Assembly (NCBI GenBank): GCA_021787535.1
Contig: JAJYLR010000002.1
Location: 24,556-88,555, forward strand
DNA from: a bacterium
GTDB lineage: Bacteria > Patescibacteriota > CPR2 > UBA1875 > JAJYID01
DNA length: 64,000 nt
Direction: 5' to 3'
Every line of letters starts with the position of its first letter. Within the stretch, counting starts at the first letter, position 1. This document shows positions 18,942 to 51,008 of the stretch, piece after piece. Made by a program: the position numbers and the translations under genes. Under the pieces are notes generated by a model, which was given only the letters and a program-made list of their open reading frames with translations, had not been told where the DNA came from and made no database searches.

Positions 18942-19034
18942 AAGATTAATTGTTGGAATTGTTAGATCGCTTTACTTGTGGGAATTGTTTAAAAATACAT
19001 TTCCTCATTTCCCACGCCTCCCACAATTTCCATG

Positions 19035-22146: not shown

Positions 22147-22154
22147 GGGTTAAT

Positions 22155-22726: not shown

Positions 22727-22893
22727 CTAATGCCCAATATCCAATGACCAATAAAATCCCAACTTGAAAATTAATTGACTGAAACATTTATTGGAAATTT
22801 CAATAGAAAAAGTTTAAGACATTTGAATTTAGGATTTATAATTTGTTTCAGATTTCGGATTTAGAGATTAGGATTTAACAACGAAGGAGTTAA

Positions 22894-23676: not shown

Positions 23677-23812
23677 GCGAGAAATCCCTGCTTTGCCGGC
23701 AGGCAGGCGAGACAATGTCAGAATTCAAATATTTAAAGAAGGCAATGAAATTATGAAATTTAAAATTAAGATATTAGAGCTTGTTAGCATTTAGAAATTA
23801 GAGATTAATACC

Positions 23813-29137: not shown

Positions 29138-29173
29138 TAAAAATTTATCATAAAACTATTCTTTTATTCAAGC

Positions 29174-29201
29174 TTGACAATGTGCTCAATCATGCTAGAA
29201 T
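29174..29201 (+). promoter_or_regulatory. sigma70-type promoter in divergent intergenic region
   Basis: TTGACA, 16 nt, TAGAAT about 75 nt upstream of ATG 29278. Confidence 0.5.
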
Positions 29202-29277
29202 GCAAAAGCAAACAAACATAAAATTTATGATAAGTATCATTAGTTTATTTAAATTATTTTCCAAGGGTAAGGGGGTA

Positions 29278-32025
29278 ATGGCGCTTCTACTAACAACTCT
29301 TGGTTTTTTGTTTATTATAGGTCACCCCCAAAAAACATTCGCAGCATTAGATAATAGTAATGTTATTTCAGATAATAGGTTTGTTGCTTCTGGCACAATG
29401 TCGGAGCAGGATATACAGAATTTTTTAAGTTCACATGGAAGCTACTTGGCAACTTATACTGTACCAGCAGCTAGATATGAAACATGGCAAGGTACCAGTT
29501 ATTATGAGAATCCTTGGATAGGACCCATTGGTAATGAAGTTAACGCTACTGGATGGAGTGCTGCTCATGTTATATATCAGGTTTCACAGTGGTATACCAT
29601 AAATCCGCAAGTCTTAATTACTACCCTAGAAAAAGAATCAGGTCTCATCACAACATCTAACCCTAGTTATTATGGGTTAGTACAATGGTCAATGGGATAT
29701 GCGTATACCGAAGGAGGTATTCTGAATGCCTGCGGTACAAGTACAAATTATAACCCGACGGGTTCGTGTGCCGGTTTCGCCATGCAGGTAGATTGGGGTG
29801 GAGGTGCTCTAAAACAATGGATGGTTTGGGCTAATGAACATAACTCAAGTGCAGGTATATATTACACAGGGAATACTGTGTCTATTGACGGGCAATCAAT
29901 ATACCTAGGCAATGGAGCAACTGCTGCTTTATACCGATATACTCCTCATATTCAGACAAGTTTTTACAATATTTTTACCTCCTGGTTTAGTATAGAGAGG
30001 GCAATTGCAGACAATGGAGATCAACGCCAATGGATTGTTGATTATACAACAGGCACGCGACAATATATCCCAAGTGCTAGTGTAATTAATGCTTGGAATT
30101 TAGATACTAATGCACCTTTACAAACAATGAGCGCTACAACATTGGGGTCTTTTCGTGATATGACAGATCCTTTGGGAAACATAATCCGTCCCAGTGGAAC
30201 CCTTACCATCTATTATGTTAATGGTGGTAGAAAGTATCCAATTGCCTCAATTGGGGTTTTTGCAGAGTGGGGTCTTTCCACCCAAGATATCATTGATACC
30301 ACGGCCAATACTGGAAGTTTATCTATAACCACTAATACTGCTACATATTTGGATAGTAATCAACAACAATGGTTAATAGATTTTACGGTAAATACTCGAT
30401 ATTATATTTCTTCAGGCGATATATCTAGCGCTTGGGGTATTAGTGTTGATCCAAATAACCAAAACAATAATGCTCCTACTGTTAGCTTGCCTAATGCTAT
30501 TTTCTCTGGGATTGTACAAGGAGCAAATCTAGGAAGAGTTGTAAGACCTAGTGGCGATGTGGCAATTTATTTTGTTGATAATGGAACCCGCTACCATATT
30601 ATGTCTCCCGAGATGATGTCTGCTTGGGGAATCTCTACAGATTCGGTTCTCAATCTCTCAAAGCAATTAATAGATGTTTCGTTACATCAAGCAGATTTAG
30701 GATATATAGTAAAGGATCCAAATAACACAAATATCTACATGGTTGATGGTTCGAATGGATTAGGCCAAACAATTCTTAGGCAATATGGCAGTCCTGATGT
30801 TCTGGTTGCATGGGAAGGGAATGTGCAAAATATAGCCATTTCAAATACTTTCTTTACAAGCAACATGACTGTTAGTGCTGATCAGATTACCACAACAAAA
30901 ATTGCCTATAATGGTAATGAATATCAAGTTGTTTCGGGACAAAAACTGCCTATGTCAGACACTGTTGCCCACCTTTATCCAGGAGTGGCACAAAATATCT
31001 CTGATGCTACCTTTAATAGACTAGTTCCTAGTGCTCCTGTTGTTCAATTTATAAGAAGCTATGATAGCACCGATGTATATATGATAGATAACCTTAAGAA
31101 ACATAAGGTTTTAAGTCCAGAGATACTTCGAGCATGGGGTATAGGACCTGATCCCATTATTAATATTGTCAATAGTGGCTACCTTAACTTAATCCCTTCC
31201 GATACAGATTTAAATACTTATGAAGCTGATGTAAGTGGCCAGCTTTATCTGATGGATGGTCGCAAGATTACTATTCCAGCAAACTTAGATACTGCATATA
31301 GAACAGTTAATGTTTATAGTCCTAGTACATACCTAATAACCCTTTTAGTTTCCGGTGAAAATGCCTCAAATTTTTTAAAGGGTTTTCAGACTGTGCCTAT
31401 TTATCTCATGGATAACGCTAAACTTCGTCATATCCGTTTCCCAGCTGATCTTGAACTTTTGAATTCAGGAGAAAACATTACCTCTGTTTCCCAATATGTT
31501 CTAAGCCAGTTTTCGGAAGATGCTTTTGTAGGGCATTATGTTACAGATGGGAGCACTAAATACCTAATAGATCATGGCACTAAGTACACTGTAAGCGACT
31601 CATTAGCTTCAGAATGGGGTCTTGGTACACCAGACACTTTAACGAGTGCTACTATCTCTAGATTTACAGGGTCTTCTGCCCTAACTAATCTTTTTAGAGA
31701 TTCGGGGGGCAATATTTATTTAATCAATCAAGGGATAAAAAGGCATATTCTCGGTCCCTCTGTTTTCTCAGCATGGGCCTTTCAAGAAAACCAAGTATTA
31801 AATACCTCAGATGCCTTGATTAATACTGTGCCCACGGGTCAATACCTTGATATATTAGCAAAGACTTCATCATCTCCGGCAATATATAAAATGGAACTAG
31901 GGATAAAAAGGCATATTCTTTCTCCCGAGGTCTTTACGTCCTTAGGATATCAACCGTCTATGGTATCCATAGTATCCTCAGCATTATTGGATAGCTATAA
32001 TGAAGGAAGTCCGATTTCGAATTAA
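29278..32025 (+). CDS. large secreted protein with at least 10 copies of the same about 65-aa repeat as the neighbouring peptidase
   Basis: Signal peptide MALLLTTLGFLFIIGHPQKTFA. Repeated cores IYYVNGGRKYPIAS, IYFVDNGTRYHIMSPEMMSAWGIS, VYMIDNLKKHKVLSPEILRAWGIG, IYKMELGIKRHILSPEVFTSLGY. The ORF-track start 29131 would overlap the divergent gene. Confidence 0.7.
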   Translation: MALLLTTLGFLFIIGHPQKTFAALDNSNVISDNRFVASGTMSEQDIQNFLSSHGSYLATYTVPAARYETWQGTSYYENPWIGPIGNEVNATGWSAAHVIYQVSQWYTINPQVLITTLEKESGLITTSNPSYYGLVQWSMGYAYTEGGILNACGTSTNYNPTGSCAGFAMQVDWGGGALKQWMVWANEHNSSAGIYYTGNTVSIDGQSIYLGNGATAALYRYTPHIQTSFYNIFTSWFSIERAIADNGDQRQWIVDYTTGTRQYIPSASVINAWNLDTNAPLQTMSATTLGSFRDMTDPLGNIIRPSGTLTIYYVNGGRKYPIASIGVFAEWGLSTQDIIDTTANTGSLSITTNTATYLDSNQQQWLIDFTVNTRYYISSGDISSAWGISVDPNNQNNNAPTVSLPNAIFSGIVQGANLGRVVRPSGDVAIYFVDNGTRYHIMSPEMMSAWGISTDSVLNLSKQLIDVSLHQADLGYIVKDPNNTNIYMVDGSNGLGQTILRQYGSPDVLVAWEGNVQNIAISNTFFTSNMTVSADQITTTKIAYNGNEYQVVSGQKLPMSDTVAHLYPGVAQNISDATFNRLVPSAPVVQFIRSYDSTDVYMIDNLKKHKVLSPEILRAWGIGPDPIINIVNSGYLNLIPSDTDLNTYEADVSGQLYLMDGRKITIPANLDTAYRTVNVYSPSTYLITLLVSGENASNFLKGFQTVPIYLMDNAKLRHIRFPADLELLNSGENITSVSQYVLSQFSEDAFVGHYVTDGSTKYLIDHGTKYTVSDSLASEWGLGTPDTLTSATISRFTGSSALTNLFRDSGGNIYLINQGIKRHILGPSVFSAWAFQENQVLNTSDALINTVPTGQYLDILAKTSSSPAIYKMELGIKRHILSPEVFTSLGYQPSMVSIVSSALLDSYNEGSPISN

Positions 32026-32107
32026 CATCAGAATACATATGTCTTGTCAGATTAAGATATAATTGACACTGTTGGCAATTTTTGCTATATTTTAACTTGT
32101 TTTCAAG

Positions 32108-32902
32108 ATGGAAAAAATAAAACAATACAATTACTTTGGATTAACCAGAGAACTGGCTCTTACTGATTTTAAACTTAAATACCAGGGCTCTTTTTTTGGA
32201 TATTTATGGTCCCTAGCTAAGCCTTTAATGCTTTTTGGAGTTCTTTACCTCGTGTTTACTAGATTCTTTAGATTAGGTGGTTCGATACCCCACTATCCCG
32301 TTTACTTATTATTGGGCATAGTTCTTTTTAACTATTTCGTAGAGTCAACATCAGCTTCAATGGGGTCTATAGTAGGTAAAGGTGATCTTATTAGAAAGGT
32401 TTACTTTCCAAGAATTATACTGACGGTTTCTACATCGATCACAGCTCTGATAACTCTATTACTTAATATGATTGTAGTATTTATTTTTATGATATTATCA
32501 AAAACGGTTCCCACTATAGATACACCCTTCTTAGTTCTACTTTTATTGGAACTCTTCGTTTTGGTATCAGGTGTTTCCTTATTTCTTGCCTCACTATTTG
32601 TGCGCTTTAGAGACATTGCTCATATTTGGGAGGTTTGTAATCAAGTACTTTTCTATGCGGTTCCTATAATCTACCCCCTTAGTTTTGTTCCTGGTAGAAT
32701 TGGAAAAATACTATTATTAAATCCCCTTGCTCAAATTATTCAAGATTCGAGATTCGTATTAATTACCCATCAAACAGCTACGGCTGGGTCTATGTTACAT
32801 TTTCCATATGTTTTTATTCCATATACTCTACCCTTCATAGTTTTTGCATTTGGGTATTGGTTTTTTCAAAAATCAGCAGCTAAGTTTGCGGAAGAGGTTT
32901 AA
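32108..32902 (+). CDS. wzm: ABC-2 type polysaccharide/teichoic acid export permease (Wzm/TagG-like)
   Basis: 6 TM ABC-2 architecture directly upstream of the cognate ATPase. Confidence 0.8.
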   Translation: MEKIKQYNYFGLTRELALTDFKLKYQGSFFGYLWSLAKPLMLFGVLYLVFTRFFRLGGSIPHYPVYLLLGIVLFNYFVESTSASMGSIVGKGDLIRKVYFPRIILTVSTSITALITLLLNMIVVFIFMILSKTVPTIDTPFLVLLLLELFVLVSGVSLFLASLFVRFRDIAHIWEVCNQVLFYAVPIIYPLSFVPGRIGKILLLNPLAQIIQDSRFVLITHQTATAGSMLHFPYVFIPYTLPFIVFAFGYWFFQKSAAKFAEEV

Positions 32903-34173
32903 TGAGTGATGTAATACAAAAACTAACCAAAAAGAAAAAAACTTCTAAAAAAGAAGTTGCAATTGAGGTAAAGAATATTTCAAAGACCTTTAAAGTACCC
33001 CATGAAAAACATATGACATTAAAAGCAACAGCATTAAATGTATTGCGAAAAAAACGTTATGAAGAATTTCAAGCTTTAAAGAATATAAATTTTGAGGTTA
33101 AAAAGGGTGAGTTTTTTGGAATTATTGGTAGAAATGGTTGCGGGAAAAGCACTTTGCTAAAGATTATTGCGAGTATTTACATTCCCACCGAAGGACAAAT
33201 AAAAATTAAAGGTAAAATCTCTCCCTTTTTAGAGCTTGGGGTAGGATTTAACCCCGAATTAACCGCTAGAGAAAATGTTTTTTTAGGAGGTTCTATTCTT
33301 GGCTTGTCAAGGAAAGAAATTTTTAAAAAATTTGATGAGATTATTCAATTTGCCGAATTAGAAGAATTTGTTGACATGAAATTTAAAAACTTCTCATCTG
33401 GAATGCAGGTTAGACTTGCATTCTCACTTTCCATTTACGCTCATGCCGAGATTCTTTTGATGGATGAAGTCTTGGCTGTTGGAGATGCAAATTTTCAGGC
33501 CAAGTGCCTAGAAGAATTTAAGAAATATAGGCAACGTGGTAAAACAGTTGTTCTAGTAACGCATGATATTGGAACTGTTAGACAACATTGTGACAGAGCT
33601 GCACTTTTAAGGAATGGTAAGATTGTTAAGATAGGCAAGGCAGAAGACGTGACGACAAAATATATAGCCCAAAATATGTCTGACCAAGAAGCAGCAGAAA
33701 TAAAAACAGATCACGCTAGTAAGTTGAAGCAATTTGGCACAAAGGATATAGTAATTACCTCAACCAAGGTTTTTGATTCAAACAATAAGGAAAGACAGTC
33801 TTTTTTAGCTGGAGATCCTATGACAGTTAAGATTGAATACAAGGCCAAAAAGACAGTAGAAGGACCACATTTTGGTATAGCAATGATTGATACGGGGGGA
33901 AATCTGCTTTGTTCTAGCAATCATTTAAGACATATGCAGATCATTAATAAAATTGAGAAAGGCCAAGTTGGTTATGTGGAATGCAAAATAAAAAGTCTAC
34001 CATTTTTAACAGGCAGTTATTTTATAACAGTCTCAATTTATTCTGATAAGTTTAAAAGTGCTCCTCGTGCCATTCATCACATTGAAAAAGCTAAGAAGAT
34101 TAATATAACAAACAAAAATCAGATTTCTGATGAGGGCATGATATTTTTAAATTGTGATTGGAAAATTTCATGA
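32902..34173 (+). CDS. wzt: polysaccharide ABC exporter ATP-binding protein (Wzt/TagH-like) with about 170-aa C-terminal extension
   Basis: Walker A GRNGCGKST, signature SSGMQVRLAF, Walker B LLMDEVLAVGD. Extra C-terminal beta-rich domain as in Wzt carbohydrate-binding domains. Confidence 0.8.
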   Translation: MSDVIQKLTKKKKTSKKEVAIEVKNISKTFKVPHEKHMTLKATALNVLRKKRYEEFQALKNINFEVKKGEFFGIIGRNGCGKSTLLKIIASIYIPTEGQIKIKGKISPFLELGVGFNPELTARENVFLGGSILGLSRKEIFKKFDEIIQFAELEEFVDMKFKNFSSGMQVRLAFSLSIYAHAEILLMDEVLAVGDANFQAKCLEEFKKYRQRGKTVVLVTHDIGTVRQHCDRAALLRNGKIVKIGKAEDVTTKYIAQNMSDQEAAEIKTDHASKLKQFGTKDIVITSTKVFDSNNKERQSFLAGDPMTVKIEYKAKKTVEGPHFGIAMIDTGGNLLCSSNHLRHMQIINKIEKGQVGYVECKIKSLPFLTGSYFITVSIYSDKFKSAPRAIHHIEKAKKINITNKNQISDEGMIFLNCDWKIS

Positions 34174-35087
34174 ATCTAAACAAAATTAAGCTTAGAAAAC
34201 TTTTATTTACTCAGGACAAAAAGTATACAATCAAGTGGATTAACTATGAGTTTTGCTCATCCTGTAATCTTAGGTGCAAATGGTGCTCACTGGATCATAA
34301 AAAGAAACCTATGTTTATAACAAATGAGATTTTGACATCTAGTCTGGATAATATAATACAAGATGAAGGGTTTGATATTGAGCGGATAGATTTGCATAAT
34401 GCCGGTGAGACATTGCTTCATCCGAAACTATCAGAATTATTAGGTATTCTAGCTAGCAAAAAAAAAGAGTTTAAAAACAAACCAACTATTCATCTCCTGA
34501 CGAATGGAACCTTGTTAAATGAAGAAAAGACGAAAATTATTCTTGCAAGTAATGCCCTTGACGAATTACGAGTTAGTATTGATGGTGGGACTAGACAATA
34601 TTATAACGAGATAAGGATTGGCGCTGATTGGGATAAAGTCAAAGAAAGAATTTCAAACTTTATTACATTCAATAAAAAGAAAATTAAAATTGGTGTTATT
34701 TGCATGGTGCCTCAAGAAAAACCACTGACAACTGACTGGATGGAAAGGGATTTTAAAGAACTTTTTAGTAAAATGGATAGTGTAGACCTTAGACATCCTC
34801 ATAACTGGGATGGGGCTAAAGATTTAAACTTATTTAAAAGTTCTGATTGGAAGGAGGAAAACAAGTTATGTAAATTCCTGTTAAAAAATCTGGTTATTCT
34901 TCCAAATGGAGATGTTACCGTTTGTTGTGCTGACTTGAATTCCAGAGGTGTTGTAGGGAACCTAAGAAACAAAACACTGACTGAGATCTTTTTTTCAGAA
35001 TCGAGATTAAAAATGATTGATTTATATAATAAAGGAAGGAAGTCAGAAATAGAACTTTGCAAAAACTGCACAGGATATTATGAATAG
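34158..35087 (+). CDS. radical SAM enzyme with C-terminal SPASM/twitch Cys cluster
   Basis: CNLRCKWC (CxxxCxxC). C-terminal VTVCCADL...CKNCTGYY auxiliary-cluster cysteines. Confidence 0.7.
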   Translation: MENFMNLNKIKLRKLLFTQDKKYTIKWINYEFCSSCNLRCKWCSLDHKKKPMFITNEILTSSLDNIIQDEGFDIERIDLHNAGETLLHPKLSELLGILASKKKEFKNKPTIHLLTNGTLLNEEKTKIILASNALDELRVSIDGGTRQYYNEIRIGADWDKVKERISNFITFNKKKIKIGVICMVPQEKPLTTDWMERDFKELFSKMDSVDLRHPHNWDGAKDLNLFKSSDWKEENKLCKFLLKNLVILPNGDVTVCCADLNSRGVVGNLRNKTLTEIFFSESRLKMIDLYNKGRKSEIELCKNCTGYYE

Positions 35088-35128
35088 TTTAATAAGTTGT
35101 TGTTGTTCACTAAAAGAGGTTTTCGCAT

Positions 35129-38062
35129 ATGAATGATGAAAAAAAATTATATTTGGAAGAACTACCATTTGATACTTATGGGAGACATGCTCTTATTCGA
35201 GATATTATTAATCTTGATCGTTCTGGCGATAAGATTAAAATACTTGATGTTGGGGGACGATATAATCTTATGACGAAATTTTTCCCAAATGACGAGGTTT
35301 TTTACCTTGATTTGGAGATTAACCCAGGGGATAAAAATGCAGTACAAGGTGATGGTTGCGATATTCCGCTCAAAGACAATAGTTTTGACTATGTTGTATC
35401 CTCTGATGTTTTCGAGCATATAAAACAAAAGGATAGGCAAAGATTTCTAAGGGAGTGCATGAGGGTAGCGAAAAATGGGCTTGTTTTAGCAGCTCCATTT
35501 TATTCAAAAGAAGTTGAGGAGGCGGAGAAAATTGCTAACGAAAGTTACAAAATAATTTTTGGGGGGCAAGACCATAGATGGCTTATTGAACATATAAAAA
35601 ACGGATTGCCAAGGGAAGATGAAGTTAAGAACTTTGTAAAAAGTAATAATTTGTACTCACAGGTATCTAACGTAAATAACCTTGGGTTGTGGGCGCAGTT
35701 AATCACAATCGGCTTTATAGCGATAGACAAAGGATTGATTAGTGAAGAATATAGTCGATTTAATAAATTCTACAATCAAGAGATTTACCCTATAGACAGA
35801 ACAAGGAACTCATATCGTAAAATCTTCCTTATTAAAAGAGAAAATAACTTTAATATGCCAAAAATTACAGAGGAGATTCCATTGGATTTGTACTTAAGAG
35901 CTGTTTCAATGGGCAACAATTTAACATTTGGTGTGATTAGTAAACTGGAGAGTAATGAAAGGGAACTGATTTTGAAAAATCAAGAGATCAGGAAAGAAAT
36001 GAAACAACAACTGGATCAAAAGCACAAAGAGCTAGAAGAAAAAGTGAAAGAGACAGAAGAGATACGGACTTCAACAAGTTGGAAGGTTACAAAGCCAATG
36101 AGAAAAATCAAAGATATAAGTAATAAAGTCTTATTATTAGGTAAAAAATCCATTACTGTGATCAAAGAGGAAGGTGTCTTTGAATTTTTTAAGCGAGTGG
36201 GTAAATACGTAACTCATAGAACAATAGCTAGATTGCATCAACAAAAAACCTTCTCCCATAGTTACCTAGATATCTCCCAATGGTATCAGGGAAATAAGAA
36301 GAAAGTGACTGTAGTCATACCAAGTTATAACGACTACAAATTGCTTAAAAAATGTATTGATAGTATTAACAGGACAGCAGATGAGAGATATGTGGATGTG
36401 ATAATAGTTGATGATGCTAGTACTAAGAATGAACACCAAAGCTTTTTGAAGTCATTAAACCAGAAGAATATTAAAGTAATCTATAACAAGAAAAATAGTG
36501 GTTTCGCCAAAACAGTTAATGTTGGTATGAAGGCAGCAAAAACCGGTGATATTGTTGTTTTAAATAGTGATATAGAAGCAAAGAAATACTGGCTTGAGTC
36601 TCTTCAGTATGCTGCATATTCCTCAAAAGACATAGGAATCGTCGGTGGTAAGCTTCTATATCCTAATAAAACCATTCAATATGCTGGATCATATCGTAAT
36701 CTAGATGCTCCTGAATGGTTTGATCACTATTACCGTTTTAAACCATCATCTTTTCCACCCGCAAATATACCTAACTTTGTACTAGGAATTACAGGGGCTT
36801 GTATGTATATCAAAAGCGAGGTAATTAAAAACATAGGTTATATGGATGAAAAATTTCCAATGGCCTTTGAGGATATGGATTATAGTATACGGGCTTGGAA
36901 TGTGGGATATAAAAGTCTGTATTTCCCTATGGCTACTCTCATTCATCATGAGTCGATTACACGTGGGACAAAACAAGGAGCTCGAGAGAAGGAATCTCTC
37001 AGATATTTCTGGCAAAAATGGGGTGATTGGTTTGACAAAAGAAATGTAAGAAATAGTGAGGGAGTAACAAAGATTATATATGTTATTCAATCTACGGGTG
37101 TTGGTGGAGGAGCGAGGATTATATTTGAACATGTTAATAAACTTAAAGAGCTTGGTTATGATGTAGAACTCTATAATCTCGAAGGAAATCCAAAATGGTT
37201 TAAGCTAGACGTTCCAGTGAAGACGTTTAAGAACTATTCTCAGCTTATAAAAGCATTGGAAAATGAAGAGGCAATTAAAGTTGCCACTTGGTGGGAAACA
37301 GCAGAACCAGTTTGGCTTTCTTCTGTAAGAAAGGGAGTCCCAGTTTATTTCGTCCAAGACATAGAATCGTCTTATTACAAAGATGATGAATATATGCAGA
37401 ACTTTGTGTTATCAAAGTACAGAAAGGAATTCAGATATTTTACTACCTCTGGAGTTAATGAAAAGGCACTTAAGGATATGGGTTTAATACCAGCAGTCAT
37501 TCCTTGTGGCATGGATACCACTATATATAAACCTCTTGAGGTGAAAAGAGAAAAAGATGTGATGCTTTCTGTAGGTCGAAGTCACTACTTGAAGAATCTC
37601 ACTATGACTATGGATGCTTGGAAAGAAATCAAAGATAAACAACCTACATTTTGGATGTTTGGTATAGAACCACAAGTTGCTGATGGAATACAAAATACTA
37701 AATACTATTACAAACCAACAGATGAAGGTGTAAACGAACTTTATAATAAGGCAACTATATTTGTTCAAACTTCAAGACATGAAGGTTTTTGTCTCCCTGT
37801 TCTAGAAGCTATGGCTGCTGGGGCTCCAGTGATATGCACAGATGCACATGGAAATGCAGATTTCTGTGTCGATGGGGAAAATTGTCTGATGATTGAGCAT
37901 GATGATGTAAATAATCTTAAAAGACAGATTAAAAAACTTTTCTCAGATAAGAAACTACAAGAAAAATTGAGGAAATCAGGATATAAAACAGCGCAGCAAT
38001 ATTCCTGGCCAGTTATAATGAAAAAATTAACAAATTTTTTTGATAACATTGCAAATAATTAG
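35129..38062 (+). CDS. three-domain glycan-synthesis protein: class I SAM methyltransferase - coiled coil - GT2 glycosyltransferase - GT1/GT4-like glycosyltransferase
   Basis: MTase motif I ILDVGGRYN and post-I acidic DL. Coiled-coil at about aa 260-310. GT2 VTVVIPSYND..IIVDDAS..DMDY. C-terminal RHEGFCLPVLEAMAAGAPVI (E-x7-E). Confidence 0.7.
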   Translation: MNDEKKLYLEELPFDTYGRHALIRDIINLDRSGDKIKILDVGGRYNLMTKFFPNDEVFYLDLEINPGDKNAVQGDGCDIPLKDNSFDYVVSSDVFEHIKQKDRQRFLRECMRVAKNGLVLAAPFYSKEVEEAEKIANESYKIIFGGQDHRWLIEHIKNGLPREDEVKNFVKSNNLYSQVSNVNNLGLWAQLITIGFIAIDKGLISEEYSRFNKFYNQEIYPIDRTRNSYRKIFLIKRENNFNMPKITEEIPLDLYLRAVSMGNNLTFGVISKLESNERELILKNQEIRKEMKQQLDQKHKELEEKVKETEEIRTSTSWKVTKPMRKIKDISNKVLLLGKKSITVIKEEGVFEFFKRVGKYVTHRTIARLHQQKTFSHSYLDISQWYQGNKKKVTVVIPSYNDYKLLKKCIDSINRTADERYVDVIIVDDASTKNEHQSFLKSLNQKNIKVIYNKKNSGFAKTVNVGMKAAKTGDIVVLNSDIEAKKYWLESLQYAAYSSKDIGIVGGKLLYPNKTIQYAGSYRNLDAPEWFDHYYRFKPSSFPPANIPNFVLGITGACMYIKSEVIKNIGYMDEKFPMAFEDMDYSIRAWNVGYKSLYFPMATLIHHESITRGTKQGAREKESLRYFWQKWGDWFDKRNVRNSEGVTKIIYVIQSTGVGGGARIIFEHVNKLKELGYDVELYNLEGNPKWFKLDVPVKTFKNYSQLIKALENEEAIKVATWWETAEPVWLSSVRKGVPVYFVQDIESSYYKDDEYMQNFVLSKYRKEFRYFTTSGVNEKALKDMGLIPAVIPCGMDTTIYKPLEVKREKDVMLSVGRSHYLKNLTMTMDAWKEIKDKQPTFWMFGIEPQVADGIQNTKYYYKPTDEGVNELYNKATIFVQTSRHEGFCLPVLEAMAAGAPVICTDAHGNADFCVDGENCLMIEHDDVNNLKRQIKKLFSDKKLQEKLRKSGYKTAQQYSWPVIMKKLTNFFDNIANN

Positions 38063-38086
38063 TTTCTTAGTCACGAAAGGAATAGC

Positions 38087-38977
38087 TTGGGAAGATTCTT
38101 ATCGGCTGTTAAATCTCCAAATAAAACTATCAAAATCCTTAAAAAGCGCTATTTGGCTTTAGGTATTGATAGTACTTTAAGGGAACTGGAAAAAATATCT
38201 ACCGAACATAAGTTACAAGAAGGTCCACAAGGATCTAAGGTAAGCATTATTTTACTCACTTTTAATAATCTCAGATATTCAAAATCCTGTATTTATAGTA
38301 TTTTAGACTTTTCTAATTACTCAAATCTCGAGCTGGTCATTATTGATAACGGTTCTTCCGATGAAACGCCGGAATTTTTGAAAAACTTGGATAAAGATTA
38401 CGGAAATGTAAGAGTCATTCTGAATAAAAACAATAGAGGTTTTGCCGGAGCCTGCAATCAGGGTATCAAAAAAGCAACCGGCGAGTATTTTATTTTCCTA
38501 AATAACGATACCATTGTGACGCCGAACTGGATTGAGAGGCTTGTCCAGCCGCTCAAAGACAAAAAGATAGGACTGGTCGGGCCGATCACTAACTTTATGT
38601 GGAACCATCAGGAGATTGATATTTTTTATCGATCGCTTGATACGATGCTCAAAAAATCCAGCCAGGTTACCGGTCAAAACAAAGGTAAGACAAGAGTGGC
38701 ACGCGATGTCGCCTTTTTCTGTGTAGCGGCCCGCAGTGATGTTATAAAGGAGGTTGGAGATTTGGACGAACGTTTCGGTATGGGGATGTTTGAGGATGAT
38801 GATTACTGTCTAAGGGTGCAAAAAGCTGGCTATAAAATAGTTGTTGTCGAGGATGTTTTCGTTCATCATTTTGGACAAATTTCCCTTTTTAGTTTAGGAA
38901 GAGGCAAGTATAATGAGTTACTCGAGGAAAATCGGGAGAAGTTTGAGAAAAAATGGGGCAAGGGACAAAATGACTAA
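38087..38977 (+). CDS. GT2 family glycosyltransferase
   Basis: VSIILLTFNN..ELVIIDNGSSDET..FLNNDT..DDDYC motifs. Confidence 0.75.
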   Translation: MGRFLSAVKSPNKTIKILKKRYLALGIDSTLRELEKISTEHKLQEGPQGSKVSIILLTFNNLRYSKSCIYSILDFSNYSNLELVIIDNGSSDETPEFLKNLDKDYGNVRVILNKNNRGFAGACNQGIKKATGEYFIFLNNDTIVTPNWIERLVQPLKDKKIGLVGPITNFMWNHQEIDIFYRSLDTMLKKSSQVTGQNKGKTRVARDVAFFCVAARSDVIKEVGDLDERFGMGMFEDDDYCLRVQKAGYKIVVVEDVFVHHFGQISLFSLGRGKYNELLEENREKFEKKWGKGQND

Positions 38978-39047
38978 TTAAGAATTTTTAATGTCTAATG
39001 AAGTTCCAATTTATCAATTTAAAAACAATTTATATTAGAACGAAGTT

Positions 39048-40997
39048 ATGATGAAAGAACTAGCAATCACCTTAAGTAAAAAAATCTTTGGTATAAAAGT
39101 GCGAAACTCTATTAAAGTTTTTATTTCCAAGCATCCTTATCTGACCGGCAGAGAAAATTATTTTGAAAAGAAGAAGTACAAAGCCGAACTCCAGAATATT
39201 CTAAAAGAGCACAAAGATGTTAAGGGCATCATTATTTATCCGTCTATTTCCGACTGGAATATGCCGCTTACCCAGCGGTTTAATCATCTGGCCAGAACAT
39301 TTTCAAGGGCGGGTTATCTTTTTTTCTACGGCACCCACAATCTTCGCTATGATAAAGTTAACGGTTTTGAGAAAATTGAAAGAAATCTTTATTTAACGAA
39401 TCAGCTTGAGGCTTTAAGGGATATTAAGGATCAGATTCTCTATCTCACTTGGGCGGCAAATAGTTTCTACACCCGAAGGTACAAAGCAAAGTCGATCATT
39501 TATGACTTTGTGGATGACCTTGAAATGTTTCCCTTGATCGGCAATAAGATTTATAAGTGCCACAACGAACTTCTGGAAAAGGCAACCATTATTCCCGTAA
39601 CGGCCAGCAGGTTGTTTGATAGTATTAAAGATAAGAGACCGGATGCATTTTTGTCTCATAACGCAGTACTCTTTGATGTCTGGCATCTGAGCGACAAAAA
39701 CATAAAACCCGACAAGGAGATGAAAAATCTAGTCGGCAAGAAGCCGCTAATCGGTTACTTCGGGTCATTAATTGAGAGCTGTTTTGACTATAACCTTTTA
39801 AAGTATGCGGCCAAAGCGCGTCCGGAATACGACTTTGCTATCAGCGGACCGCTTGACTTCGATACCTCAAACAGCGTGCATAAATGGAGTGACTACCCAA
39901 ATATCCACTTTATCGGAACAGTTCCCAAATATGAAGATTTGGCTGAGAGGATTCATTTTTTTGACGTTTGTACTGTCCCGTTTGTACTAAATGAGGTTAC
40001 TCAGTCTATATCACCTTTAAAACTTTTCGAGTACATGGCGGCAGGCAAACCTATTGTGACTACCGATATGCGGGAATGCAAAAAGTACAAGAGCGTTCTG
40101 GTTGCCAAGACTAAGGAAGAGTTTGTTAAAAACCTAGACAGGGCTATAAAGCTGAAAGACGACCCGAAGTTTCAGACTTTGGTTTTGAAGGAAGCGAAGG
40201 AAAATACCTGGGAAGTTAGAACCAGGGAAATTATTAAGCAGCTGGAGGCGCAAAAAAAGAGGAGACATTCTATACTGGGAGTCGGAGTAGACCCGCATTC
40301 TTTCAGTGAATCGGTTGAGAAAGCCATGAATGCTGCCAGAGAAAGAAAAGGATTTTTTGTTGTGACGGCAAATGCAGAGATCGTCTCAAAAGGCGCCAAA
40401 GATGAAGCTCTAAACGATATTTTTGCCCAAGCCGATATGGTGACCGCGGACGGTTCGGGGGTGGTGCTGGCCGGTAAAATCCTGGGCAAGCATTTTCCGG
40501 AGAGGGTTGGCGGAGCCGATCTTGCTGAAGCGTTAATTCGAGAAGGTTCTAAAGAAGGTTTGAGTTTTTATTTTCTAGGTGCTACCAAGGATATCTTGGA
40601 CAAGGCAGTTAAAAATATCCGCGCCAAGTATCCGCACGTTAAAATTACCGGTTACAGAGATGGCGGAGTCTGCAGTTTAGACGGGAATTTTGAGAAAAAC
40701 AGCGAAATCATTCAGGAAATTAAAAGTTTAAAGCCCAACTTTATATTTGTGGGTTTGGGTTGCCCTAAACAAGAACGGTGGATTGTGAGGCACAAGGAAG
40801 AACTTGGGGCGGTTTGTATAGGATTGGGAGGAACTTTTCGTTATTGGTCAGGCATCGAAAGAAGAGCTCCGAAGTTTATCCAGAAAATGTATATGGAGGG
40901 GGTTTGGCGTTTGATACAAAACCCTAAAAGGCTTGGCAGATTTCTTGCTTTGCCGAAATTCTTTTATAATGTAATGAAGGAAAGGATTGGCTCATGA
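39048..40997 (+). CDS. bifunctional glycosyltransferase: N-terminal GT1/GT4-like domain fused to C-terminal WecB/TagA/CpsF (GT26) domain
   Basis: N-terminal PLKLFEYMAAGKPIV (E-x7-E). C-terminal ILGVGVD..VVTANAEI..ADMVTADGSGVVLA..FVGLGCPKQE GT26 signature. Confidence 0.7.
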   Translation: MMKELAITLSKKIFGIKVRNSIKVFISKHPYLTGRENYFEKKKYKAELQNILKEHKDVKGIIIYPSISDWNMPLTQRFNHLARTFSRAGYLFFYGTHNLRYDKVNGFEKIERNLYLTNQLEALRDIKDQILYLTWAANSFYTRRYKAKSIIYDFVDDLEMFPLIGNKIYKCHNELLEKATIIPVTASRLFDSIKDKRPDAFLSHNAVLFDVWHLSDKNIKPDKEMKNLVGKKPLIGYFGSLIESCFDYNLLKYAAKARPEYDFAISGPLDFDTSNSVHKWSDYPNIHFIGTVPKYEDLAERIHFFDVCTVPFVLNEVTQSISPLKLFEYMAAGKPIVTTDMRECKKYKSVLVAKTKEEFVKNLDRAIKLKDDPKFQTLVLKEAKENTWEVRTREIIKQLEAQKKRRHSILGVGVDPHSFSESVEKAMNAARERKGFFVVTANAEIVSKGAKDEALNDIFAQADMVTADGSGVVLAGKILGKHFPERVGGADLAEALIREGSKEGLSFYFLGATKDILDKAVKNIRAKYPHVKITGYRDGGVCSLDGNFEKNSEIIQEIKSLKPNFIFVGLGCPKQERWIVRHKEELGAVCIGLGGTFRYWSGIERRAPKFIQKMYMEGVWRLIQNPKRLGRFLALPKFFYNVMKERIGS

Positions 40998-41434
40998 TAC
41001 TAGATAAAGAGGGCAAGATTTTCGGGAAAGTTAATATACTGGACTTTTTAGCGGCTGTTTTTGTGATAGCCGTTTTGGGGTTCATAGGGTTTAAATTTTT
41101 AAAAACGGACTCCAGGGCTAAGTCTGTCGAGCCGATGACGGTGACTGTATATGTAGATAATGTGCAGCCCGATATAGCAAAGAGTATGCAAGGGGTAAAG
41201 CAAGTTTATTTTGGGCGGGGACTAGTGAAAACTCCAGTATCGAATGTCCAGGTTTTGTCCATGCCGGCAGGGTCGGGACGGCCAGACTTCAAAGAGGTGA
41301 GGGTTACATTATCCGGAAGCGGTTACGTTTACTCTGATGGCGCTTATTTTGACGATCAGAGAGTATCGCTTGGCGAAAAGGTTTGGCTCAGGTCTATCTA
41401 TGAACTTGAGACAACCGTAATGAAAATTAACTAA
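40994..41434 (+). CDS. small membrane-anchored protein, unknown
   Basis: Single N-terminal TM, within the glycan operon. Confidence 0.35.
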   Translation: MILDKEGKIFGKVNILDFLAAVFVIAVLGFIGFKFLKTDSRAKSVEPMTVTVYVDNVQPDIAKSMQGVKQVYFGRGLVKTPVSNVQVLSMPAGSGRPDFKEVRVTLSGSGYVYSDGAYFDDQRVSLGEKVWLRSIYELETTVMKIN

Positions 41435-42897
41435 TGAAAGCGAATTTTCAAAATATCTATGCAAGCAGCAGGTTTGCTTCTCTTGCGCGGAAGCTTTCTT
41501 TTTTCTGTGAAAATAGCTTCGTTTTTAAGCAGAGGGAATATTTCAAAAACAGCCGGCTGAGTTGGCCGGAGCTATGGAGAAATAGCAAATTTTTTAGTAC
41601 CTTGTCATCTGGTCTTGATCGGCTAAGACCTCAGATTCAGTCCGGATTTCTTGATAAACTGACACTTCTTCTTTTCTTCATAATATTTCTCTTTACGCCA
41701 TTTAAAAGCTGGCTGAAAAATGCCTACCCTTCAAACCTTTATACATTTTTGGTGCCTGTGGCGCTGGTATTAATCGCCGCTTGGCTTTTAGCCAGAAAGA
41801 GGTCGGAAAAGATGCATTTTACCTTAGCTGACCTTGGAATAATATTTATAGTCTTCAGTATTTTAGTTTCTTCTTTTGCCAGCCTTTTTACTTATGGACA
41901 AGTCAAAAATATATATTATGAAGGGTTTATCTGGCTTTCATACATTGCCGTTTTCTATATCGGCCGGACAATCTTTCAGACAAAAAAACAACTTAAGGTA
42001 TTTCTAGCCTTCAATTTATTTATTGTCTTTGTCGTTTCTCTCATAGGGATCGGCCAGCTGGTTTTAGGCGTCCAGACGCCCCAGTGGATTGAAGGTTTTG
42101 AACTGATAAAAACCAGAATATTTTCAACGCTAGACAATCCGATCATTTTATCCGGGTATTTAAATATCTTTTTCTTTATAGCTCTAGGGATTTTTTTCGG
42201 GTTAAAGCGTCTCAAAAGTAAACTGTTACTCCTGCCGTTATTTGCTGTTATGCTAGTTGCTTTAGTTCTGACTTTTTCGAGGAGCGGCTGGATCGGCTTG
42301 GTGTTGGGTTTGCTCTTTTTCTTCTTCATTTATAAACCCAAATATATTTTGGGTATTATACCGCTTTCCATATTTTCTCTGCTTGTGATCCCAAAAAGTT
42401 ATTTTTATCGTCTTACTGATATCTTCGACAGCCGATATAACGCCATTTCTTCTGTTTCTGGCAGGACATGGACCTTGCATAATGTTTTTCATATACTACC
42501 GCATCACCTTCTTTTTGGAGTTGGGCCGGGGATGTATGGTGGAGAAGTTGCCTTTAAAACGAGTCCATCCATAGTTTACATGGAAGGTATTCAAGGCGGA
42601 GCAGTACCGATGCAAAACACAGATAATCAGTTTCTGCAAATCCTGATAGAGCAGGGTTTGCTTGGTATCTTAGCTTTCATTTTTTTTGCTCTAGCTATCC
42701 TATGCTCAGGGCTCATAGTTTATCAGCACTTGAATGATAGATTGTTAAAAATGCTAGCACTAGGGATTACGACTGCTTTTTTTGCTTTTTTAGTGCAGAG
42801 CGTCTTCACTGACAGCCTGCAGTTTCCTCAAATGGCACTGACTATGTTTGGATTTTTAGGGATATTACTATCTTTGCCAAGAATAAAATTGACTTAG
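41434..42897 (+). CDS. O-antigen ligase/polymerase-family (Wzy_C-like) polytopic membrane protein
   Basis: At least 10 TM helices, periplasmic-loop motif LTFSRSGWIGL characteristic of O-antigen ligase-like proteins. Confidence 0.6.
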   Translation: MKANFQNIYASSRFASLARKLSFFCENSFVFKQREYFKNSRLSWPELWRNSKFFSTLSSGLDRLRPQIQSGFLDKLTLLLFFIIFLFTPFKSWLKNAYPSNLYTFLVPVALVLIAAWLLARKRSEKMHFTLADLGIIFIVFSILVSSFASLFTYGQVKNIYYEGFIWLSYIAVFYIGRTIFQTKKQLKVFLAFNLFIVFVVSLIGIGQLVLGVQTPQWIEGFELIKTRIFSTLDNPIILSGYLNIFFFIALGIFFGLKRLKSKLLLLPLFAVMLVALVLTFSRSGWIGLVLGLLFFFFIYKPKYILGIIPLSIFSLLVIPKSYFYRLTDIFDSRYNAISSVSGRTWTLHNVFHILPHHLLFGVGPGMYGGEVAFKTSPSIVYMEGIQGGAVPMQNTDNQFLQILIEQGLLGILAFIFFALAILCSGLIVYQHLNDRLLKMLALGITTAFFAFLVQSVFTDSLQFPQMALTMFGFLGILLSLPRIKLT

Positions 42898-42945
42898 ATC
42901 TTTCAACTTTTTATACTTAAATTTTAATCATTCAAAAGGAGGATT

Positions 42946-44334
42946 ATGAATAAATTAAAAATTTACCCTGTTATTTTAGCCGGAGGCAGCGGTACTCGGC
43001 TCTGGCCATTTTCTCGGGAGGCGACGCCGAAGCAGCTACTCTCGCTAACAGACGAGAAATCACTTATTGAAAAATCGGTTGCCAGATGCAAATATTTTAC
43101 GAAAGAAAATGTTCGTGTTGTTGCCATAGTGGACTTAGCGGAAAAGATTAGACACCACACTACAAATGACCAAATTATTTATATAGAAGAACCTATGAAA
43201 AGAGGTACGGCCGCAGCGATTGCTCTTGCTGTTCGAGAGATTTATAAAAAAGATCCTACCGGAGTGATAGCTGTTCTGACGGCCGACCATGAACTAGATG
43301 ATCAGAAGCTGGCGGAAGATTTGAAAATGGCAGCCCATGCAGCTTCTAGGGAAAATTCGATTACATTACTCGGCATAAAGCCAACAAGTCCTGAAACTGG
43401 TTATGGCTATATTAAGTTAGGCAAAAAATTGGATGGATTTAAAGATTGCTATGTCTCAGGTGGATTTGTAGAGAAGCCAAATAAGGACACGGCAGAAAAG
43501 TATTTAAGAAATGGTAATTATCTCTGGAATTCCGGTATGTTTGTGGCTACAGCTGAAACATTTGTTCAGGAATTTAAAAGACATTTGCCGCAAACAGCAA
43601 GTTTAATCGCAGCAACAACCAGTGACGTTGATAAAGTATTTGGATCACTGCCAAAAGTGTCGTTTGATGATGGAGTGCTAGAGAAGACAAAAAACATTAC
43701 CGTACTCGAAACTGATATTTACTGGAATGATCTAGGCAGTTGGCAAAGTGTCTATGAACTTCTCCCAAAAGATGAAGGCCATAACTATATTGATAATGGA
43801 TGTATATCTCAAAACAACGACCATACTATGATTTTTAATAAAAAAGATCGGCTTGTGGTAGGTATTGGCCTCAAAAACACCGTGATTGTTGATACTGAGG
43901 ATGCGACTTTGGTCTGTGACATGGATATGACTCAAGAAGTTAAAGAAGTTGTTGAAACGATTAAACAAAGCGGCCGCAAAGAACACCTGGAACATAAGAC
44001 AACTCACAGGCCATGGGGAAGATATACCATTCTTGATGAAGGCGAAGGATTTAAAGTTAAGTTTATACATGTTAAACCCGGAGCAAAATTATCCCTTCAG
44101 TCGCATAAACACAGAAGTGAACATTGGATAGTTGTGAAGGGTGAGGCCAAGATTACGAATGGCGATAAGGTAATCATTCTAAAGCAAAACGAGAGCACCT
44201 TTATCCCGGCAAAATCAAAGCATAGATTAGAAAATGATAATAAATCGGAACTTACGATCGTTGAGGTTCAGAGCGGATCATACTTAGGAGAAGATGATAT
44301 CGTCAGATATGATGATATGTATGAAAGAAAATAG
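42946..44334 (+). CDS. manC: mannose-1-phosphate guanylyltransferase / mannose-6-phosphate isomerase (cupin C-terminus)
   Basis: IYPVILAGGSGTRLWP signature. C-terminal cupin with HxH..E..H. Confidence 0.8.
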   Translation: MNKLKIYPVILAGGSGTRLWPFSREATPKQLLSLTDEKSLIEKSVARCKYFTKENVRVVAIVDLAEKIRHHTTNDQIIYIEEPMKRGTAAAIALAVREIYKKDPTGVIAVLTADHELDDQKLAEDLKMAAHAASRENSITLLGIKPTSPETGYGYIKLGKKLDGFKDCYVSGGFVEKPNKDTAEKYLRNGNYLWNSGMFVATAETFVQEFKRHLPQTASLIAATTSDVDKVFGSLPKVSFDDGVLEKTKNITVLETDIYWNDLGSWQSVYELLPKDEGHNYIDNGCISQNNDHTMIFNKKDRLVVGIGLKNTVIVDTEDATLVCDMDMTQEVKEVVETIKQSGRKEHLEHKTTHRPWGRYTILDEGEGFKVKFIHVKPGAKLSLQSHKHRSEHWIVVKGEAKITNGDKVIILKQNESTFIPAKSKHRLENDNKSELTIVEVQSGSYLGEDDIVRYDDMYERK

Positions 44335-44596
44335 TCATGGAATTTATTTTGGGAAGTTGTACTGGTGATTTGCGACAGCCAAGGATGCCAATACATATCT
44401 TCATACTTATCCTTAACCTTGGATAATTTATATCTGACATGCCTGATAGACTAGCTGTTCGGGGGGTTGGCCCTTGGCCGATTGAAATTTCTTGCTAAAA
44501 ACTGAGATATTCCGCACATTATCGCTGATTAATATATTAATATATAAATATTAGCGTAGTGATTTTTTGAAGATTTCAGTTCAAAATTGGCCAAAA

Positions 44597-44620
44597 ATAG
44601 TGTCAGTAAGCTGACACTAT
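44597..44620. promoter_or_regulatory. perfect 24-bp palindrome ATAGTGTCAG-taag-CTGACACTAT (candidate operator)
   Basis: 10-bp perfect inverted arms about 125 nt upstream of the WecA-like gene. Half-site shared with the palindromes at 52676, 53854 and 53900. Confidence 0.5.
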
Positions 44621-44743
44621 TTGAGGATTGTTTTTAATTAATCTTTGGATACGAAGTAATCAGCCTTCTGGTGAAGCCCTACAAGATTTGCCGGGAAGTT
44701 TGCTGTAGCAAAGCGAGCATAAAAGTAGTATAATAGCTCTCAC

Positions 44744-50987: not shown

Positions 50988-51008
50988 AACAGCTAATAGC
51001 TGTTTTTG
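50988..51008 (+). terminator. terminator hairpin after tRNA-Asn
   Basis: AACAGCT-aat-AGCTGTT followed by TTTTG. A second A/T-rich stem follows and may also serve the convergent - strand gene. Confidence 0.55.

Follow-up and report, generated by a model that had tools for sequence, protein, structure and literature searches.

A predicted terminator-coupled surface-glycan locus with a BtrN-like radical SAM enzyme in a CPR-like bacterium

Chain termination followed by cap-gated export is the quality-control principle of polysaccharide synthesis that depends on an ATP-binding cassette (ABC) transporter, and the known caps are methyl, methyl-phosphate and Kdo groups. A 64,000-nucleotide stretch of contig JAJYLR010000002.1 (the window, 64 kb) encodes a predicted surface-glycan locus of this kind, in which a radical S-adenosylmethionine (SAM) enzyme, here rSAM, lies between the transporter protein Wzt and a 977-aa megaenzyme combining a methyltransferase with two glycosyltransferases. 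In layout the locus comes closest, among known systems, to Geobacillus WsaE/Wzt/WsaB and to Klebsiella O12/O7. The class of pathway is known and widespread; what departs from it is the BtrN-like rSAM, coupled to the terminator methyltransferase and probably co-inherited with the carbohydrate-binding domain (CBD) of Wzt.

The slg cluster of Geobacillus stearothermophilus NRS 2004/3a resembles the locus in that its host is a monoderm, as the present host probably is, and in its succession of wzm, wzt and a multifunctional enzyme (PMC2943079). That enzyme, WsaE, joins an N-terminal O-methyltransferase to two glycosyltransferase (GT) domains and both polymerises and caps the chain; the likeness noted here is one of described layout (PMC2943079). 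Wzt is predicted to bind the methylated end there, and the Wzy_C protein WsaB is the predicted transferase (PMC2943079). Low G+C, overlapping stop and start codons and an adjoining gene for a secreted surface protein are further common features (PMC2943079). The clusters differ in initiation, which relies on WsaP, a galactose-1-phosphate transferase, in Geobacillus and on WecA with a TagA-type adaptor enzyme here. The slg cluster also has neither a radical SAM enzyme nor a DUF4330 protein. It makes a rhamnan with the full RmlABCD set, whereas the present locus has ManC, and neither RmlC nor RmlD was seen within the 64-kb window.

WbbB of Klebsiella pneumoniae O12 and ORF6 of its O7 locus unite in one protein a terminator at the N-terminus, a helical spacer and polymerase GTs at the C-terminus, as the megaenzyme does, and export in these systems requires a Wzt with a carbohydrate-binding module (PMC11231755). 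The terminator of WbbB is, in contrast, a Kdo transferase (GT99), and the methyltransferase of O7 ORF6 is paired with a kinase and an internal carbohydrate-binding module (PMC11231755). Here the methyltransferase stands alone with a separate (elsewhere fused) rSAM, the spacer is much shorter, and the host is probably not a diderm with lipopolysaccharide (LPS). The likeness in logic extends to the WbdD-WbdA system of Escherichia coli O9a and O8, where terminal methylation (O8) or phospho-methylation (O9a) halts polymerisation and signals to the Wzt CBD; a coiled coil sets the chain length, and the polymer is a mannan made from GDP-mannose (PMC3482155). Unlike the module studied here, WbdD is a protein apart from its polymerase; the O9a form includes a kinase domain, and the coiled coil is far longer. 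By analogy the megaenzyme would work like WbdD, but it is not a demonstrated member of the WbdD family.

Transporter and predicted terminator-polymerase fusion

The glycan genes are tightly packed at 32108-45751, with all named open reading frames (ORFs) on the forward strand. The wzm-manC operon spans 32108-44334, and wecA stands apart at 44744-45751. Several junctions overlap (stop/start) or measure less than 70 nt; the wzt stop and the rSAM start share the sequence ATGA. G+C drops to 0.33-0.35 over 32-38 kb, the flanks having 0.40-0.48, and low G+C is typical of glycan loci (PMC2943079). A promoter-like site at 32063-32091 (forward strand; TTGACA-17-TATATT with TG, 11 of 12 matches in a consensus scan) is the best such site and lies just 5' of wzm, and a pattern scan places a terminator-like hairpin 3' of manC at 44465-44483 (forward strand); both are pattern matches only. 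All genes named in the preliminary description are present where it placed them and passed profile searches, except that the WecA-family initiator lies beyond the span it gave (32108-42897). It had omitted four genes of the set, encoding a stand-alone GT2, a GT4-TagA fusion, a DUF4330 protein and ManC.

Wzm (32108-32902) is an ABC-2 type permease (PF01061 ABC2_membrane, E 3.4e-12). Wzt (32902-34173, 423 aa) consists of a nucleotide-binding domain (NBD; residues 1-262, 32902-33687; ABC_tran E 6e-24) and a C-terminal CBD (residues 263-423, 33688-34173). Galactan-exporter, TagH and Wzt models match the transporter with E values of 1e-50 to 1e-52. Wzt_C covers residues 277-414 (E 2e-22; 80 bits, cut-off 30.4 bits), and among solved structures the full-length Aquifex Wzt (8dku/7k2t) is closest (E 5e-67 over residues 47-402, C-terminal domain included). 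Because this alignment runs through residue 402, the C-terminal extension of about 170 residues, previously proposed to recognise a chain-terminating modification, is a genuine Wzt CBD.

The megaenzyme (35129-38062; Methyltransf_11, Glycos_transf_2, Glycos_transf_1) had been described as a class I SAM methyltransferase with two GT domains, and it passes the Pfam thresholds for this reading. An AlphaFold2 model built on 50 homologues (predicted local distance difference test, pLDDT, 88; predicted TM-score, pTM, 0.65) gives the order methyltransferase, helix, GT-A, GT-B. Residues 1-240 are modelled as an alpha/beta Rossmann-like domain and 252-313 as a single unbroken helix; helices of lower confidence follow until 389, then a GT-A fold (393-636) and a GT-B fold (647-977). 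The methyltransferase (MT) module (residues 1-245, 35129-35863) matches Methyltransf_11 at E 4.6e-12 (46.9 bits, cut-off 21.2), and Methyltransf_25 is also above its cut-off. The GT2 (GT-A) module at 36299-37048 matches PF00535 (E 2.6e-21; Glycos_transf_2 at residues 394-558) and GT-A structures in Foldseek; the GT4 (GT-B) module at 37049-38062 matches PF00534 (E 4e-25; Glycos_transf_1 at residues 802-953). In a Foldseek search with the whole 977-aa model the GT matches dominate, so that it is uninformative for the methyltransferase domain. The GT-B module has the mycobacterial methylmannose-polysaccharide mannosyltransferase 7qsg as its top match, and a mannose-containing polymer is plausible because of this fold match together with ManC.

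Between the MT module and GT2 (residues 252-390, 35882-36298) lie the long helix, the motif SWKVTKPMR (317-325), which is conserved among relatives, and the low-confidence helices. Residues ~268-313 are highly charged and free of Pro and Gly, with a 3-4-3-4 hydrophobic spacing in a heptad/charge scan. Helix 252-313 and this spacing are compatible with a coiled coil, as predicted for a short helix from a single-chain model and the scan, and the whole helical spacer would measure only ~45-60 residues. The suggested likeness to fusions of terminator, ruler and polymerase thus holds for the layout, which is that of WbbB, O7 ORF6 and WsaE; it does not extend to a sequence match with WbdD, and the spacer is short.

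The first 320 residues of the megaenzyme form a distinct family. Its 16 aligned members share the invariants LDVGGR, D61, G74-D75, D87, E96-H97, R112, APF-S, W151/E154-H155 and Y229-R230, and the SAM-binding elements are kept (LDVGGR as a variant of motif I, D61, G74-D75 and the D87..DVFEH block). Pfam scores, invariant motifs and the modelled alpha/beta domain agree on a class I SAM-dependent methyltransferase whose motif I deviates; the profile of the module gives weak matches to solved class I methyltransferases. WbdD was considered as a homologue of this domain and rejected, as PDB searches with the 977-aa protein (to E 0.001) and with the MT-module profile (to E 1) matched no WbdD chain.

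The MT-module profile retrieved 80 metagenome loci, where the usual order is Wzm, Wzt, MT module, mostly directly 3' of Wzt. The module occurs there alone with a coiled-coil tail or fused to GT2/GT4 modules, and gene order marks it as a predicted Wzt-linked terminator family. The same split, with some orthologues ending past the coiled coil and others carrying GT modules, has been described for coiled-coil terminators (PMC11231755). Full-length relatives of the megaenzyme are rare (P0002 and P0106 at ~61% identity, P0003 at 56%), and the GT2-GT4 pair alone is common in Solirubrobacteraceae (~48% identity).

The radical SAM enzyme and its partners

The rSAM gene (34170-35087, 305 aa) sits between wzt and the megaenzyme gene, as first described. 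Radical_SAM (PF04055, E 2.4e-13) and SPASM (E 3.2e-12) both match the protein. In an alignment of 39 homologues, 42-61% identical to the window enzyme, the motif CNLRCKWC (CX3CX2C) is invariant and an AGE(T)LLHP motif is also kept. The assignment to the radical SAM enzymes stands, and the SPASM cluster attributed to the protein should be read as a twitch domain. The C-terminal part has only five conserved cysteines (C234, C252, C253, C297 and C300) where the two-cluster SPASM pattern has seven, and the Pfam model matches nonetheless, since twitch domains fall within its coverage too. Residues 234, 252, 297 and 300 are the auxiliary-cluster cysteines, and C253 is an extra invariant cysteine. 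The strict family numbers 68 representatives at E <=1e-30 among 1.84 billion proteins.

With the family profile, BtrN (PDB 4m7t) is the best solved relative (E 1.7e-17), with the core and the auxiliary-cluster domain aligned. The family pattern C...vC(C)...C-x2-C superposes on C...pC(F)...C-x2-C of BtrN, so that all four auxiliary cysteines align. BtrN is also the top Foldseek match, and the nucleotide-sugar radical SAM enzymes DesII and BlsE are among the fold matches. The 2-deoxy-scyllo-inosamine dehydrogenase BtrN has a twitch domain, in which four cysteines ligate the auxiliary cluster, and oxidises a sugar-like secondary alcohol (PMC10337720). By its cysteine arrangement the window rSAM is therefore predicted to be a BtrN-like twitch enzyme, having a single auxiliary cluster where full SPASM enzymes have two. 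The two proteins are alike in their small size and their carbohydrate-like substrate, predicted in the case of rSAM. They differ in that identity is only ~18-22%, BtrN has Phe in place of the invariant C253, and BtrN belongs to aminoglycoside biosynthesis whereas rSAM lies in a context of glycan assembly. No description of radical SAM enzymes tied to Wzt or to chain terminators was found in the literature.

The order Wzt with Wzt_C, rSAM and a 333-361-aa protein recurs in a Wolfebacteria metagenome-assembled genome (MAG; L003/L004), on a 1.2-Mb contig (L008) and in Deltaproteobacteria (L009/L017). These 333-361-aa proteins are 35-43% identical to megaenzyme residues 1-320 (E 1e-58 to 1e-84) and have coiled-coil tails. 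The same three genes are clustered in Planctomycetota (L015, L019, L088), once with a megaenzyme of the form MT module-GT4-GT2. All seven scanned family members of at least 600 aa contain a methyltransferase domain. The 1764-aa protein P0257 has the architecture rSAM-MT-GT2-GT4-GT2-TPR (TPR, tetratricopeptide repeat) and thus the window gene order within one polypeptide. Other fusions read MT-rSAM-GT2 (P0387), MT-rSAM-TPR-MT (P0256), MT-rSAM-MT (P0258), MT-rSAM-TPR (P0259), MT-rSAM (P0268 and P0319) and GT2-MT module-rSAM (L082). Judged by genomic position and by fusion, rSAM is coupled to the MT module.

The closest genome-derived homologue of rSAM (57% identical), in a Nitrospirae MAG (L012, 107-10892), is part of a Methyltransf_24-GT2-MT module-rSAM fusion. 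The fusion gene lies between the gene of a 1414-aa TPR-GT2-TPR-GT4 protein and genes for flagellin and FliD, with no Wzt, and this setting suggests an island for glycosylating flagellin in which the same MT-rSAM pair is used.

A large Bacteroidota clade of rSAM (L029-L091) is ~40-46% identical to the window enzyme, has an N-terminal extension of ~40 residues and stands alone; no glycan genes were detected around it with the queries used. In the sole locus of this clade with gene calls (L007, 6654-8026), rSAM adjoins rpmH. The function of the clade may differ from that of the Wzt-linked clade.

The sister locus L173 has the window gene order with no rSAM; the wecA position lies past the end of its contig. 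All common genes are 62-81% identical to those of the window (Wzm 81%, Wzt NBD 76%, MT module 62%, megaenzyme GT2 73% and GT4 64%, stand-alone GT2 63%, GT4-TagA 71-77%, DUF4330 62%, Wzy_C 62%, ManC 77%), and only the Wzt CBD, at 29.6%, and the coiled-coil linker, at 40%, fall below this range. The window CBD is instead 51% identical to that of L008 and 43% to that of the L003 group, both of which bear rSAM and whose NBDs are only 66% identical. Among 51 Wzt tails compared, these alone exceed 40% identity to the window CBD, and every tail from a locus without rSAM reaches at most 36%. The chance that both nearest CBDs bear rSAM is ~0.02 by a rough estimate that takes ~40 independent loci, six of them with rSAM, and ignores phylogeny. 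Because only the CBD and linker diverge from L173, and because the CBD is nearest to those of rSAM-bearing loci, one joint replacement probably brought in both the rSAM gene and the 3' half of wzt. Such a replacement would be expected if rSAM altered the structure to be recognised by the CBD, and it suggests that rSAM helps to make the export cap. The comparison also suggests that the window CBD is of the type found alongside rSAM, and a CBD type that changes with rSAM would lend indirect support to cap-dependent export. We regard the CBD-rSAM link as suggestive, not established. Together with the synteny and the fusions with the MT module, this co-inheritance strengthens the earlier hint that rSAM introduces an uncommon modification.

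Variation is not limited to the CBD. L172 (1-14634, compared with window 35129-45751), from the same ENA sample, is the closest relative found: its WecA and H+-pyrophosphatase are 91% and 92% identical to those of the window, and it keeps the stand-alone GT2 (69%), GT4-TagA (87%), DUF4330 (79%) and Wzy_C (82%). Its polymerase and terminator block is wholly different and encodes MT-WbsX, WbsX, several GT2s and a WsaF-like GT4. From these comparisons the locus looks like a serotype-variable glycan locus, with a fixed core for adaptor synthesis and ligation and a swappable block of polymerase, terminator and transporter.

Proposed pathway and alternative explanations

Initiation is assigned to WecA (44744-45751), a WecA/TagO-like polyprenyl-phosphate N-acetylglucosamine (GlcNAc)-1-phosphate transferase (PF00953, E 7e-36; TIGR02380, E 1.6e-43, below its cut-off). 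The 649-aa protein at 39048-40997 fuses a TuaH-like GT4 (TuaH model E 3e-23) to a WecG/TagA-family domain (PF03808, E 2e-55); the TarA model also matches it (E 1e-52), at 179 bits and below the equivalog cut-off of 350. The presence of both a GlcNAc-1-phosphate transferase and a TagA/WecG-family transferase predicts an adaptor of the GlcNAc-N-acetylmannosamine (ManNAc) type on a polyprenyl carrier. The stand-alone GT2 (38087-38977; PF00535, E 5e-33) is a candidate adaptor enzyme or polymerase partner. ManC (42946-44334), a mannose-1-phosphate guanylyltransferase/mannose-6-phosphate isomerase (TIGR01479, 461.8 bits, cut-off 373), would supply GDP-mannose. Further precursors could come from genes at 24271-26923 (forward strand) for GalU-like and RmlA-like proteins and RmlB, a dTDP-glucose 4,6-dehydratase. 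Their NCBIfam scores are 324.6 bits for galU (cut-off 326.8), 312 for rmlA (360.65) and 487.9 for dTDP_gluc_dehyt (365.1).

The candidate for the last step is the Wzy_C-family polytopic membrane protein (41434-42897; PF04932, E 1.2e-19; 71 bits, cut-off 31.7 bits), with ~10-12 hydrophobic segments and a loop at ~325-399 by hydropathy. Its close relatives are lineage-specific only, and PDB sequence searches returned no solved relatives for this protein. Near residue 395 the window lineage reads NTDNQFLQ, whereas the distant homologues P0243-P0246 read HSHNLFLQ. The His of the H-N-x-(F/L)-L-Q motif, which we take to be the functionally essential His of WaaL and PglL, is replaced by Asp in the window protein and in all eight aligned close relatives. 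These nine sequences also have an insertion (GPGMYGGEVAFK...GIQGGAVP) in the large outer loop, and together the two changes may signal a different acceptor or mechanism. The earlier label of O-antigen-ligase-like protein is thus supported by the Wzy_C match, and an O-oligosaccharyltransferase or another ligase is possible instead. The gene of a DUF4330 protein (40994-41434; PF14221, E 1e-19) always occurs together with the Wzy_C gene; the protein has an N-terminal membrane anchor (hydrophobic segment 8-39) and an outer domain of ~100 aa. The DUF4330 gene is translationally coupled to both neighbours and kept in L172 and L173.

Directly 5' of wzm on the same strand, positions 29131-32025 encode a 964-aa secreted or membrane-anchored repeat protein with one hydrophobic segment (45-67). 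It has no Pfam or PDB match, and its internal repeats are not significant by self-BLAST. A 930-aa counterpart, with a C-terminus 70% identical, is present in L010 and L173, and in the lineage the gene always lies just 5' of wzm. It may be a wall protein that binds glycan, or else a target of glycosylation. Beside the Wzy_C gene of L172, a CHAP-domain protein (11500-13488) shows weak similarity (25%) to the C-terminal part of the 964-aa protein; both could be wall-glycan-binding modules on autolysins or glycosylation targets. The acceptor might be a protein, as has been proposed for WsaB (PMC2943079), but also a lipid or the wall.

In the pathway that we propose, WecA would place GlcNAc-1-phosphate on polyprenyl phosphate, the TagA-type domain would add a ManNAc-type sugar, and the GT4 half of the fusion with the stand-alone GT2 would finish the adaptor. 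The GT2 and GT4 modules of the megaenzyme would then polymerise the chain in the cytoplasm, with GDP-mannose from ManC as the likely donor. The MT module, held apart from the polymerase by the short helix, would cap the non-reducing end and thereby limit chain length. The C-terminal domain of Wzt would read the cap, so that Wzm/Wzt exports capped chains only, and outside the membrane Wzy_C, with DUF4330, would hand the glycan over from its lipid carrier to the eventual acceptor. The rSAM would work with the methyltransferase on the terminal sugar or its activated precursor, abstracting a hydrogen atom before an oxidation, epimerisation or deoxygenation. In this lineage the residue serving as export cap would then be both radical-modified and methylated, and the CBD acquired with the rSAM gene would match and read it.

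We consider it very likely that the wzm-manC operon and wecA together form a terminator-coupled, ABC-transporter-dependent assembly line for a surface glycan. The explanation as a whole, including the role proposed for rSAM, is likely. For its parts, we lean towards rSAM acting on the glycan together with the methyltransferase, and we suggest more tentatively that its product is part of the cap read by the CBD. With still greater reserve, we speculate that twitch rSAM and class I MT make up an undescribed glycan-capping or end-modifying module in which radical chemistry on the terminal sugar, before or after methylation, creates a new chain-ending export signal read by a dedicated clade of Wzt CBDs, and that CBD and rSAM move as a cassette, giving serotype-like diversity even in the candidate phyla radiation (CPR). 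If so, the caps and end modifications would gain a new chemical class from an rSAM tied to a terminator, and an orphan radical SAM family would receive a function. Modular diversification of an O-antigen-like kind is also seen at this locus, in a CPR-like lineage whose cell surfaces have hardly been studied.

Several observations weigh against this explanation. We infer the pathway steps from family membership, and with them the sugars, linkages, cap and acceptor. The methyltransferase has an atypical motif I (GGRYN where GxGxG is expected), and the megaenzyme model falls below a pLDDT of 50 at residues 312-337 and 362-377. Only 4 of the 80 MT-module loci have rSAM, and the closest megaenzyme relatives (L010, L011, L173) have none, so rSAM is dispensable for the basic system. 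Distant members of the rSAM family (~40-46% identity) occur outside glycan loci, next to a nonribosomal peptide synthetase (NRPS) in Maridesulfovibrio and as orphans in Bacteroidota. Two independent CPR loci carry the CBD association, and the rSAM-bearing loci of Deltaproteobacteria and Planctomycetota have CBDs unlike that of the window. The Nitrospirae fusion, in a locus with no Wzt, may mean that the MT-rSAM pair simply modifies a sugar and does not make an export signal. This leads to the view that rSAM modifies an internal glycan residue or a nucleotide-sugar precursor, such as the product of RmlA and RmlB, with no role in termination or transporter recognition, its position by wzt reflecting operon compactness. 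RmlA and RmlB encoded upstream with RmlC and RmlD not seen in the window, the genes for short-chain epimerases/dehydratases (SDR) in most rSAM loci, the flagellin locus itself and the fold matches to DesII and BlsE all fit such a role, and the locus would then be an ordinary member of a well-described pathway class. Yet in several phyla rSAM is placed specifically between the MT module and a wzt that bears a CBD, its fusion partners are methyltransferases and not sugar-nucleotide enzymes, and the CBD, which the rSAM insertion adjoins, is besides the linker the only common segment replaced relative to the sister locus. We therefore hold this view to be rather unlikely. Far less probable still is that rSAM matures a peptide or protein (as in ribosomally made, post-translationally modified peptides, called RiPPs, or anaerobic sulfatase-maturating enzymes, anSMEs) and has nothing to do with the glycan. 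Weak NCBIfam matches to many maturases and the distant homologue beside the NRPS agree with it, but no precursor-peptide or sulfatase gene is nearby, the 305 aa hold a single auxiliary cluster and no RiPP recognition element (RRE) or leader-binding domain, and synteny and fusion with glycan enzymes are consistent.

The assembly line itself leaves room for several destinations of the glycan. Transfer to protein, with Wzy_C acting as an O-oligosaccharyltransferase (like WsaB, PglL or PilO) on an S-layer, pilin or wall protein, would change the last step only and is compatible with our explanation. The same gene set in G. stearothermophilus glycosylates an S-layer protein encoded beside the cluster (PMC2943079), the window has no outer-membrane or lipid A genes and shows a Gram-positive-type secretion system and CPR-like content, and the gene of the 964-aa secreted protein is syntenic with wzm in the sister loci. 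We see this as a possibility short of an even chance, given that no glycosylation sites or S-layer domains were identified, that the 964-aa protein lacks a recognisable family, that a WecA and TagA adaptor is typical of wall-linked polymers and that Wzy_C is without the usual His. The adaptor could also belong to a secondary cell wall polymer resembling wall teichoic acid, or to a lipoglycan, with a GlcNAc-ManNAc linkage unit as its base and joined either to peptidoglycan, through an LCP ligase encoded elsewhere, or to a membrane glycolipid by Wzy_C. In line with this are the WecA/TagO-like initiator, the TarA-like domain, the closeness of the Wzt NBD to TagH/TarH and to the mycobacterial galactan exporter, and the peptidoglycan-related genes flanking the locus in the window or in L172 (VanW/PG_binding_4, CHAP, glucosaminidase). 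However, the LCP family (LytR_cpsA_psr) had no match among the ~50 ORFs scanned in the 64 kb, and the conserved Wzy_C-DUF4330 pair has no obvious job in peptidoglycan attachment, so we rate this destination as somewhat doubtful. As for an ordinary LPS O-antigen cluster of a diderm with Wzy_C acting as WaaL, the combination of Wzm, Wzt with CBD, terminator, WecA and Wzy_C is indeed the classical O-antigen set (PMC11231755). The 64 kb contain no lipid A, core, Lpt or outer-membrane genes, the gene content and the relatives point to CPR, the adaptor enzyme is of the TagA type and Wzy_C has Asp in place of His. We reject this reading as very improbable, there being no supporting genes in the window.

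Host and flanking genes

The window encodes a Gram-positive-type type IV secretion system (T4SS) with a T4SS pilin, PrgI and a TraG/VirB4-like P-loop ATPase, as well as a PilB-like ATPase, a ComFC-like protein and PEGA proteins, and no outer-membrane, lipid A, core or Lpt genes were found within its 64 kb. Relatives come from Wolfebacteria and Moranbacteria MAGs and from 0.1-0.2 um fractions of Hainich groundwater. The earlier designation of the organism as monoderm-like fits this gene content but is not proven; an origin in the CPR (Patescibacteria) is likely, also short of proof. The T4SS pilin, PrgI and the TraG/VirB4-like ATPase fall in a conjugation/T4SS-like cluster at 6590-17508, together with a C39-like peptidase, PEGA and a glucosaminidase-like protein. 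Several large ORFs of this region have no family, for example that at 8002-10017.

The replication-origin neighbourhood at 17826-24274 encodes recF, dnaN and dnaA on the reverse strand and yidC and jag (KH/R3H) on the forward strand, and the gap of ~1.1 kb at 21769-22893 may hold oriC, rpmH or rnpA. On the other side of the glycan locus, ORFs of 539, 615, 328 and 296 aa have no Pfam match (50993-52612, reverse strand; 54759-58388, forward strand). Positions 53101-53787 and 59122-62457 encode an NrtR-type Nudix regulator, a second Nudix protein, a NAD kinase, a weakly matching quinolinate phosphoribosyltransferase (QRPTase)-like protein and a NAD synthase; by these assignments they look like a cluster for NAD salvage and its regulation.

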